Shown here in pieces: positions 56,469 to 57,123 of a DNA stretch of 64,000 nucleotides (positions within the stretch are counted from its first letter, which is position 1; each line of letters begins with the position of its first letter). A program made the translations under genes and the position numbers. The notes beneath the pieces are model-generated. The model ran no database searches. It worked only from the letters and a program-made list of their open reading frames with translations, and was not told where the DNA came from. Origin of the DNA: Escherichia coli (GTDB lineage Bacteria; Pseudomonadota; Gammaproteobacteria; Enterobacterales; Enterobacteriaceae); the NCBI RefSeq assembly GCF_002854065.1, contig NZ_CP024147.1, one strand, 5' to 3'.

Positions 56469-56876
56469 TTATCTTTGCGTCTCTTGTTGCAACAAAATCC
56501 GCCGTAAATCCCGCCATTCGGCTTCGTCCATGCTGTCGGCTGCCAGCCATAAATGTTGCCGTTTACCGCCATCAGAACGTAAACGCAGCATCATGCCGCT
56601 CTTAATCATCCACGGTGCTTTGACGATGCTCCACTCCTGCCCTTGCCAACGCAAACGCCCGTCCATCAACAAGCGAATTTCCCCCTGGCGAGCATTAATA
56701 CGCCGCTGGCTGCGAACGCAATCAAACACCACCAGCGAAAGTAACACCATCCATAACGGGGTGTAACTGAGCGGCCAGGGCATGAGTAAAATAACAGCGG
56801 CAACCAGCCCATGAATCAGCAAGGAAAGCCACTGTGCGCGCCAGGAGACGCGCAAATCAGATTGCCACAGGACCAC
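56469..56876 (-). CDS. cptA: Inner-membrane toxin CptA (YgfX)
   Basis: 135-aa ORF with two hydrophobic helices; overlaps the upstream sdhE by 20 bp. Confidence 0.88.
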
Positions 56877-57123
56877 GTTCCCGGTTCCGTGTCTGGATGA
56901 GTCGGACCATCATTTCCAGTTCTGCATCGGCCGGTTTACCGTGATTCATCAGCCAGTTAAACAGGTCTGGATCGTCACATTCCAGCAGACGAATAAAGAT
57001 GCGTTTTTCGTCATCGCTTAAGCTGTCGTACTCATGTTCGAAAAACGGCATGATTGAAATATCGAGTTCGCGCATACCACGGCGGCATGCCCAATGAATG
57101 CGGGCTTTGTTGTTAATGTCCAT
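56857..57123 (-). CDS. sdhE: FAD assembly factor SdhE (CptB antitoxin, YgfY)
   Basis: 88-aa ORF with the conserved RGMRELD motif. Confidence 0.9.

Follow-up and report, generated by a model that had tools for sequence, protein, structure and literature searches.

Organization of the sdhE-ygfX locus

We analyzed a 64,000-nucleotide (nt) stretch of Escherichia coli DNA (contig NZ_CP024147.1 of RefSeq assembly GCF_002854065.1; hereafter, the window) with regard to two overlapping genes on its minus strand, sdhE and ygfX. According to the open reading frame listing and direct reading of the sequence, sdhE (also called ygfY or cptB) extends from position 57123 to 56857, starts with ATG, ends with TGA and encodes 88 amino acids, the product being the flavin adenine dinucleotide (FAD) assembly factor that serves SdhA and FrdA. 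ygfX (also called cptA) extends from position 56876 to 56469, starts with GTG, ends with TAA and encodes 135 amino acids, and its product is an inner-membrane protein for which a hairpin of two helices and a cytoplasmic domain of the PH-like type are predicted. The two genes share 20 nt (GTGGTCCTGTGGCAATCTGA, positions 56857 to 56876, read directly on the minus strand), which are composed, in the ygfX frame, of codons 1-6 with bases 1 and 2 of codon 7 and, in the sdhE frame, of bases 2 and 3 of codon 83 followed by codons 84-88 with the stop codon. The ygfX frame is therefore +1 relative to sdhE. The GTG start codon of ygfX (56874 to 56876) is embedded in the sdhE codons CGT-GGT (Arg83-Gly84), and the sdhE stop codon TGA was read directly at positions 56857 to 56859. 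An AGGAAG sequence resembling the Shine-Dalgarno sequence is located 4 nt 5' of the sdhE ATG (57127 to 57132; duplex energy -4.3 kcal/mol), and weaker purine stretches, GGAA (-12 to -9) and GGGAA (-6 to -2), precede the ygfX GTG within the sdhE coding sequence (56878 to 56888).

The locus is the chromosomal sdhE-ygfX (cptB-cptA) core operon of E. coli, which has already been annotated and studied, and its discovery value is therefore small. The initial annotation, made from the sequence alone, had described a known cptA-sdhE pair consisting of the gene for an SdhE-type flavinylation factor and that for a small membrane protein, with a 20-bp coding overlap at positions 56857-56876. The gene identities were confirmed by Pfam, NCBIfam and RefSeq, and the overlap by the open reading frame listing and direct reading; the initial annotation did not mention that both genes lie on the minus strand. 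The description as a known module also held, since the pair matches b2897-b2896 (ygfY-ygfX, cptB-cptA) of E. coli K-12. In the RefSeq annotation of K-12 MG1655, b2896 (ygfX; 3040416-3040823) and b2897 (sdhE; 3040804-3041070) have the same order and the identical 20-nt overlap without any substantive difference, that is, they represent the same locus in another strain. The RefSeq annotation of O157:H7 TR01 likewise gives the same gene coordinates and the same 20-nt overlap as in the window. A region of 981 bp around the pair is 100% identical to several complete E. coli genomes, and one copy of the stretch is present in every complete E. coli genome but one (5425 of 5426). ygfX is located directly downstream of sdhE in the window, in the RefSeq E. 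coli genomes and in all of the 11 distantly related loci described below.

Sequence comparison placed the first protein of the window in the SdhE family of FAD assembly factors. It matched Pfam PF03937 (Sdh5; 5e-26, 90.8 bits, cut-off 27) and, over positions 1-88 of 88, the NCBIfam equivalog NF008130 'FAD assembly factor SdhE' (198.4 bits, cut-off 120). It also matched the solved structures 1x6i/1x6j (YgfY), 6c12 and 6b58 with E-values from 8e-59 to 2e-51, all of which were deposited as FAD assembly factor SdhE and which include the SdhA-SdhE complex. The RGxxE motif of the Sdh5/SdhE family was found in the translation as R15-G16-M17-R18-E19 (codons at 57067 to 57081, minus strand), G16 and E19 being the functional residues that were mutated in a study of Shewanella. 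A ygfY mutant of E. coli was described as viable, with strongly reduced succinate dehydrogenase activity and without growth on succinate. SdhE in the window would be the soluble FAD assembly factor which flavinylates SdhA and FrdA.

The second protein can be assigned, again by sequence comparison, to the YgfX/CptA family (Pfam PF07254 Cpta_toxin; 6.6e-50, 169 bits, cut-off 27.3), its residues 2-131 being aligned to positions 1-132 of the 133 positions in the profile. An AlphaFold2 model (predicted local distance difference test score, pLDDT, of 90), examined with DSSP, has a beta-strand at residues 2-8, helices at residues 12-31 and 36-62, a beta domain at residues 65-112 and a helix at residues 118-134. 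The model predicts two N-terminal transmembrane helices (encoded at 56691 to 56843, minus strand), followed by a cytoplasmic domain in the form of a PH-like beta-sandwich with a C-terminal helix (residues 65-134, 56475 to 56684, minus strand). The protein has been detected in membrane pull-downs of E. coli. YgfX is a small inner-membrane protein, whose model places an N-terminal beta-strand in the cytoplasm, then two helices as a hairpin in the membrane, and finally a cytoplasmic domain of the PH-like type.

The start codon of ygfX

To examine the start codon, we used 80 species-level loci from Enterobacteriaceae, which had been collected from a nine-sequence alignment with a retrieval pattern corresponding to YgfX residues 3-12; 78 of the 80 have an intact and fully covered sdhE. 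As this pattern biases the 80 loci toward a conserved junction, 11 more distant loci obtained by a whole-protein search, and hence unselected on the N-terminus (29-59% identity in YgfX), served as a control. GTG was found at the homologous position in all of the 80 loci and in nine of the 11 distant loci. The 20-nt overlap ending in TGA was present in every one of the 78 loci with an intact sdhE, the stop codon being TAA in some distant relatives. A 21-nt sequence (CGTGGTCCTGTGGCAATCTGA) was invariant across the 78 species, with an entropy of 1-1.9 bits at the neighboring wobble positions. Within the overlap, the third positions of all six degenerate sdhE codons were invariant, in comparison with one of 75 outside, although three of these six sites are partly forced by the retrieval pattern. 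For the ygfX codons, the corresponding numbers were four of four within the overlap and none of 108 outside. The pattern forces neither the T of the start codon, nor the T of Val2, nor any of the ygfX wobble sites. Note that the T of the GTG showed no variation, although it occupies a four-fold degenerate position in sdhE.

It might be argued that the GTG is an artefact of gene calling and that YgfX begins at the TTG of codon 8 or at the ATG of codon 32, without any overlap. Calling errors are frequent for GTG starts preceded by a weak Shine-Dalgarno sequence, and the starts of ygfX orthologues have been deposited inconsistently: the lengths are 136, 114 and 97 amino acids in one cluster from Providencia (P0156) and 137 and 104 amino acids in another from Pantoea (P0247), which shows that gene callers disagree on this GTG within sdhE. 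The only candidate for a non-overlapping start near the junction, the TTG of codon 8 (56853 to 56855, minus strand), lies 1 nt past the sdhE stop codon. It was rejected, because this codon is CTG, TTA, CTC, CTT, CTA or ATA in other species. In addition, the family alignment retains M-V-L-W-Q-x-x-L-R-V-S-W with an invariant Ser11, residues 2-7 are conserved down to about 29% identity even where the genes no longer overlap, and the Pfam profile begins at residue 2. Residues 2-8 form a confident beta-strand in the model and are thus likely to be structural, and the sdhE wobble sites in the overlap are frozen, which only reading of the second frame would lead one to expect. Since the TTG is not conserved, the N-terminal sequence is kept and residues 2-8 are a predicted strand, a later, non-overlapping start of ygfX is very unlikely, and we consider the artefact explanation extremely improbable.

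These comparisons indicate that the overlap is not a start-calling artefact and that ygfX starts at the GTG 20 nt inside sdhE. A later, non-overlapping start of cptA, which the initial annotation had named as the finding that would speak against the overlap, thus failed on the comparative evidence. The same evidence settles a start which has been called inconsistently among the orthologues in public databases.

Age, constraint and length of the overlap

The distant loci also provided information on the age of the overlap. Eight of the 11, including those from Erwinia, Providencia and Mixta, have a 20-nt overlap with the GTG inside CG(T)-GG(N) and an SdhE tail of R-G-P-V-A-x or a close variant. 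The remaining three differ from one another. In Pantoea the homologous GTG has been lost and a GTG 6 nt upstream is called, giving an overlap of 26 nt; another locus has a 14-nt overlap with an ATG start; and a third (L085, 59% identity in YgfX) has no overlap, the genes being separated by 1 nt, although the YgfX N-terminus (MVLWRAELRVSW) is retained. In this last lineage, SdhE is shortened by three residues by a TAA located 1 nt upstream of the GTG of ygfX, whose start is preceded by a good Shine-Dalgarno sequence (AAGGAAG). The early stop indicates that the SdhE tail is dispensable at least in that lineage.

In the phase of the overlap, the wobble positions of sdhE are the second positions of ygfX, and the wobble positions of ygfX are the first positions of sdhE. 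Because the wobble positions of each frame are constrained positions of the other, the 20 nt are frozen. The invariance observed is the pattern that translation of both frames, with constraint on both peptides, would be expected to produce, and the tail of SdhE (R-G-P-V-A-I) as well as the N-terminus of YgfX (M-V-L-W-Q-S-D) is under purifying selection. On these comparative grounds, we conclude that the overlap is real, ancient and dual-coding, and the locus can serve as a clean textbook case of a frozen dual-coding overlap.

The initial annotation had regarded the overlap as unusually long, which was not borne out. For the syntenic region of O157:H7 TR01, a strain from which the window departs by insertions of the insertion sequence IS1 below about 16.5 kb, RefSeq annotates ten same-strand overlaps, with lengths of 1, 4, 4, 4, 8, 11, 11, 20, 23 and 41 nt, so that 20 nt is the third longest of the ten. 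According to published reviews, more than 80% of overlapping pairs share less than 30 bp and about 59% of overlaps are of the short 1- or 4-nt type, whereas the long ones are mainly of phase 3n+2, a class that is retained because shortening to -4 or -1 is not open to it. The 20 nt found here is of the form 3n+2 and belongs to this common "long phase-1" class. An overlap of this kind is unable to shorten to the efficient -4/-1 arrangements, and it has therefore persisted across Enterobacterales. The notable feature is the depth of its conservation, not its length.

Possible translational coupling

The initial annotation had further stated that the overlap enforces translational coupling, which is an overstatement. 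Efficient termination-reinitiation has been described for stop-start spacings from about -8 to +6 nt, and the spacing in sdhE-ygfX is -20. Coupled pairs of the ATGA/TGATG type resemble sdhE-ygfX in the same-strand overlap and in the weak initiation signals of the downstream gene, but differ from it in this spacing. Nevertheless, the initiation signals of ygfX are poor: the duplex of its Shine-Dalgarno sequence with the anti-Shine-Dalgarno sequence has an energy of -4.3 kcal/mol in E. coli, which is in the lower half of the genes in the window, and the values range from -3.5 to -4.3 kcal/mol in the 80 species and from about 0 to -0.9 kcal/mol in five distant relatives. The GTG start together with the weak or absent Shine-Dalgarno sequence makes some dependence of ygfX on the translation of sdhE plausible. 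For the same reason, the translation of ygfX is probably low and probably aided by ribosomes which are translating, or terminating on, sdhE.

RNA folding at the junction gave no special structure which would hide the ygfX start (z = -0.6), and Rfam had no match there at E <= 1. A consensus scan of positions 56300-57500 detected no sigma-70-like promoter and gave no indication of a separate promoter for ygfX within the pair, and, as for terminators, only two weak terminator-like sites at chance level, both inside ygfX.

An alternative explanation is that the overlap is a frozen accident without any regulatory role, in which ygfX is initiated de novo, independently of sdhE and at a low level, and the overlap persists only because neither of the protein ends is free to change. 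It is consistent with the 3n+2 phase, long overlaps of which cannot become -4 or -1 and have been described as typically uncoupled, with the absence of a stable RNA structure over the start, and with the lineage which resolved the overlap by a new stop codon and a better Shine-Dalgarno sequence. On the other hand, in several lineages the GTG is preceded by practically no Shine-Dalgarno sequence (0.4 to -0.9 kcal/mol), and purely independent initiation is hard to reconcile with this; moreover, SdhE and YgfX are reported to interact, and coupling is enriched among gene pairs whose products interact. We regard the frozen accident as somewhat unlikely.

A more elaborate proposal appears rather unlikely to us. 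The exact 20-nt junction, with its GTG in Arg-Gly codons and a Shine-Dalgarno sequence that is poor or missing, is retained in three or more families of Enterobacterales and might be a selected device in which ribosomes that have completed sdhE back up by about 17 nt and re-initiate on ygfX. In this way a low ratio of YgfX to SdhE would be set for a complex of the two proteins anchored in the membrane. The SdhE tail (RGPVAI) and the N-terminal strand of YgfX would then be part of the interface, and YgfX would be a membrane tether or a regulator of flavinylation, not a toxin.

The explanation which we favor, with good though not full confidence, is that sdhE and ygfX form a bicistronic unit with a true GTG start, a frozen dual-coding overlap and a low, probably sdhE-aided translation of ygfX. 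Weighing against it are the following points: the bias of the retrieval pattern described above, the published spacing window together with the view that long overlaps are typically uncoupled, and the work of Masuda in 2012, which reportedly found toxicity of YgfX and its binding to FtsZ and MreB in E. coli.

The toxin-antitoxin question

The last of these points concerns the possibility that sdhE-ygfX is a genuine type IV toxin-antitoxin system, in which YgfX (CptA, the toxin) blocks the polymerization of FtsZ and MreB, SdhE (CptB, the antitoxin) counteracts it, and the overlap keeps the synthesis of the antitoxin first. The gene order, antitoxin and then toxin, fits this possibility, and Pfam names family PF07254 'Membrane-bound toxin component of toxin-antitoxin system'. 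Toxicity and rescue were reportedly found in E. coli (Masuda 2012, as cited in later papers), and both have also been reported for a homologue from Acinetobacter upon its expression in E. coli.

Several results from other hosts disagree with it. In Serratia sp. ATCC 39006, McNeil, Fineran and colleagues found that sdhEygfX is co-transcribed, that SdhE flavinylates succinate dehydrogenase and fumarate reductase, and that the membrane protein YgfX binds SdhE, while no toxin-antitoxin phenotype was detected in that host. The interaction is contrary to the definition of type IV systems, in which toxin and antitoxin do not interact directly and the antitoxin acts on the target. The homologous, co-transcribed ygfY-ygfX pair of Shewanella oneidensis (SO_1339/1340), which has a 37-bp gap instead of an overlap, was described as neither a toxin-antitoxin pair nor, in the case of YgfY, a factor for the flavinylation of succinate dehydrogenase in this bacterium; no toxin-antitoxin phenotype was seen, the ygfY deletion was viable, and the ygfYX double deletion gave no rescue. 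The viability of the E. coli ygfY mutant, whose defect is in succinate dehydrogenase, also argues against a type IV system.

The distribution of the locus points in the same direction. An accessory, patchy or mobile distribution, which is typical though not strictly defining of toxin-antitoxin modules, is not that of sdhE-ygfX, which is a core locus present in nearly all complete E. coli genomes. Its neighborhood is syntenic across Enterobacterales: the order ygfZ-sdhE-ygfX holds in every distant locus which reaches upstream, and fldB-xerD is found downstream in most of those which extend far enough. The locus also represents one of just four toxin groups, out of 169, that are prevalent in every sequence type. 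CbtA/CbeA (YeeV/YeeU), a type IV system, is likewise a small two-gene unit said to act on FtsZ and MreB, but it resides on cryptic prophages and is variable, whereas sdhE-ygfX is core and vertically inherited, its 'antitoxin' has a separate housekeeping role as an enzymatic chaperone, and its partners bind each other. PADLOC, used to look for defense systems, gave no match at the locus, and the RefSeq product name of the downstream gene is now simply 'protein YgfX'.

Taken with these observations, the type IV explanation is quite unlikely. YgfX is reported to bind SdhE, and would be toxic only when over-produced, in some hosts. Of the label 'toxin-antitoxin-like' given initially, the part referring to a described module stands, whereas the toxin-antitoxin part is contested by the lack of phenotype in Serratia and Shewanella, the interaction of the partners, the viability of sdhE mutants and the core position of the locus. 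The pair is filed here under the SdhE and YgfX/CptA families and not as an established toxin-antitoxin system. Its annotation as toxin-antitoxin in Pfam and in many toxin-antitoxin surveys should be used with caution, as the pair behaves as a core housekeeping operon.

Predicted SdhE-YgfX fusion proteins

Predicted fusions of SdhE and YgfX, 166-217 amino acids long and with both Pfam domains, occur in public assemblies (proteins P0002, P0003, P0005, P0008, P0009, P0010, P0013 and P0022). In most of these proteins, the switch of frame has a position of its own, as in ...RERG|LWQSD, ...RGPV|QSD and ...RGPVAI|DLRV. Because the junctions vary and the clusters consist of only one or two sequences, the fusions look like sporadic insertions or deletions or assembly errors. 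A programmed frameshift giving an SdhE-YgfX fusion was considered, on account of predicted fusions of 207-217 amino acids, and rejected: the junctions vary, most clusters are singletons, and no slippery site is visible.

Other features in the window

A programmed +1 frameshift site is present in prfB at positions 52257-52271 on the minus strand (GGGGGTATCTTTGAC), where an element resembling the Shine-Dalgarno sequence is followed by CTT TGA C; RefSeq annotates prfB here as two joined pieces. A copy of IS1 with terminal repeats and open reading frames similar to InsA and InsB lies between actS (ygeR) and xdhA (15435-16200, plus strand), and accounts for the 777-nt offset relative to O157:H7 TR01 (768 bp and a 9-bp duplication). 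Further IS1 ends were found at 8166-8188 and 8957-8979 (both on the minus strand, about 790 nt apart) in the region of the ETT2 cryptic type III secretion cluster, which is located at about 1-13,000 when mapped from TR01 with an approximate offset. The IS1 differences show that the window stems from a strain other than TR01. In the annotation of TR01, an internal stop makes sctT of ETT2 a pseudogene; after the cluster come a small toxin gene of the GhoT/OrtT family and a frameshifted glycoside hydrolase gene. The only tRNA gene in the window is that for tRNA-Gly (anticodon CCC; 14440-14513, minus strand). Finally, yqfG (41 amino acids, plus strand) and yqfH (23 amino acids, minus strand) converge with a 4-nt overlap at about 48,871-49,064, as deduced from the TR01 coordinates 3874279-3874472.
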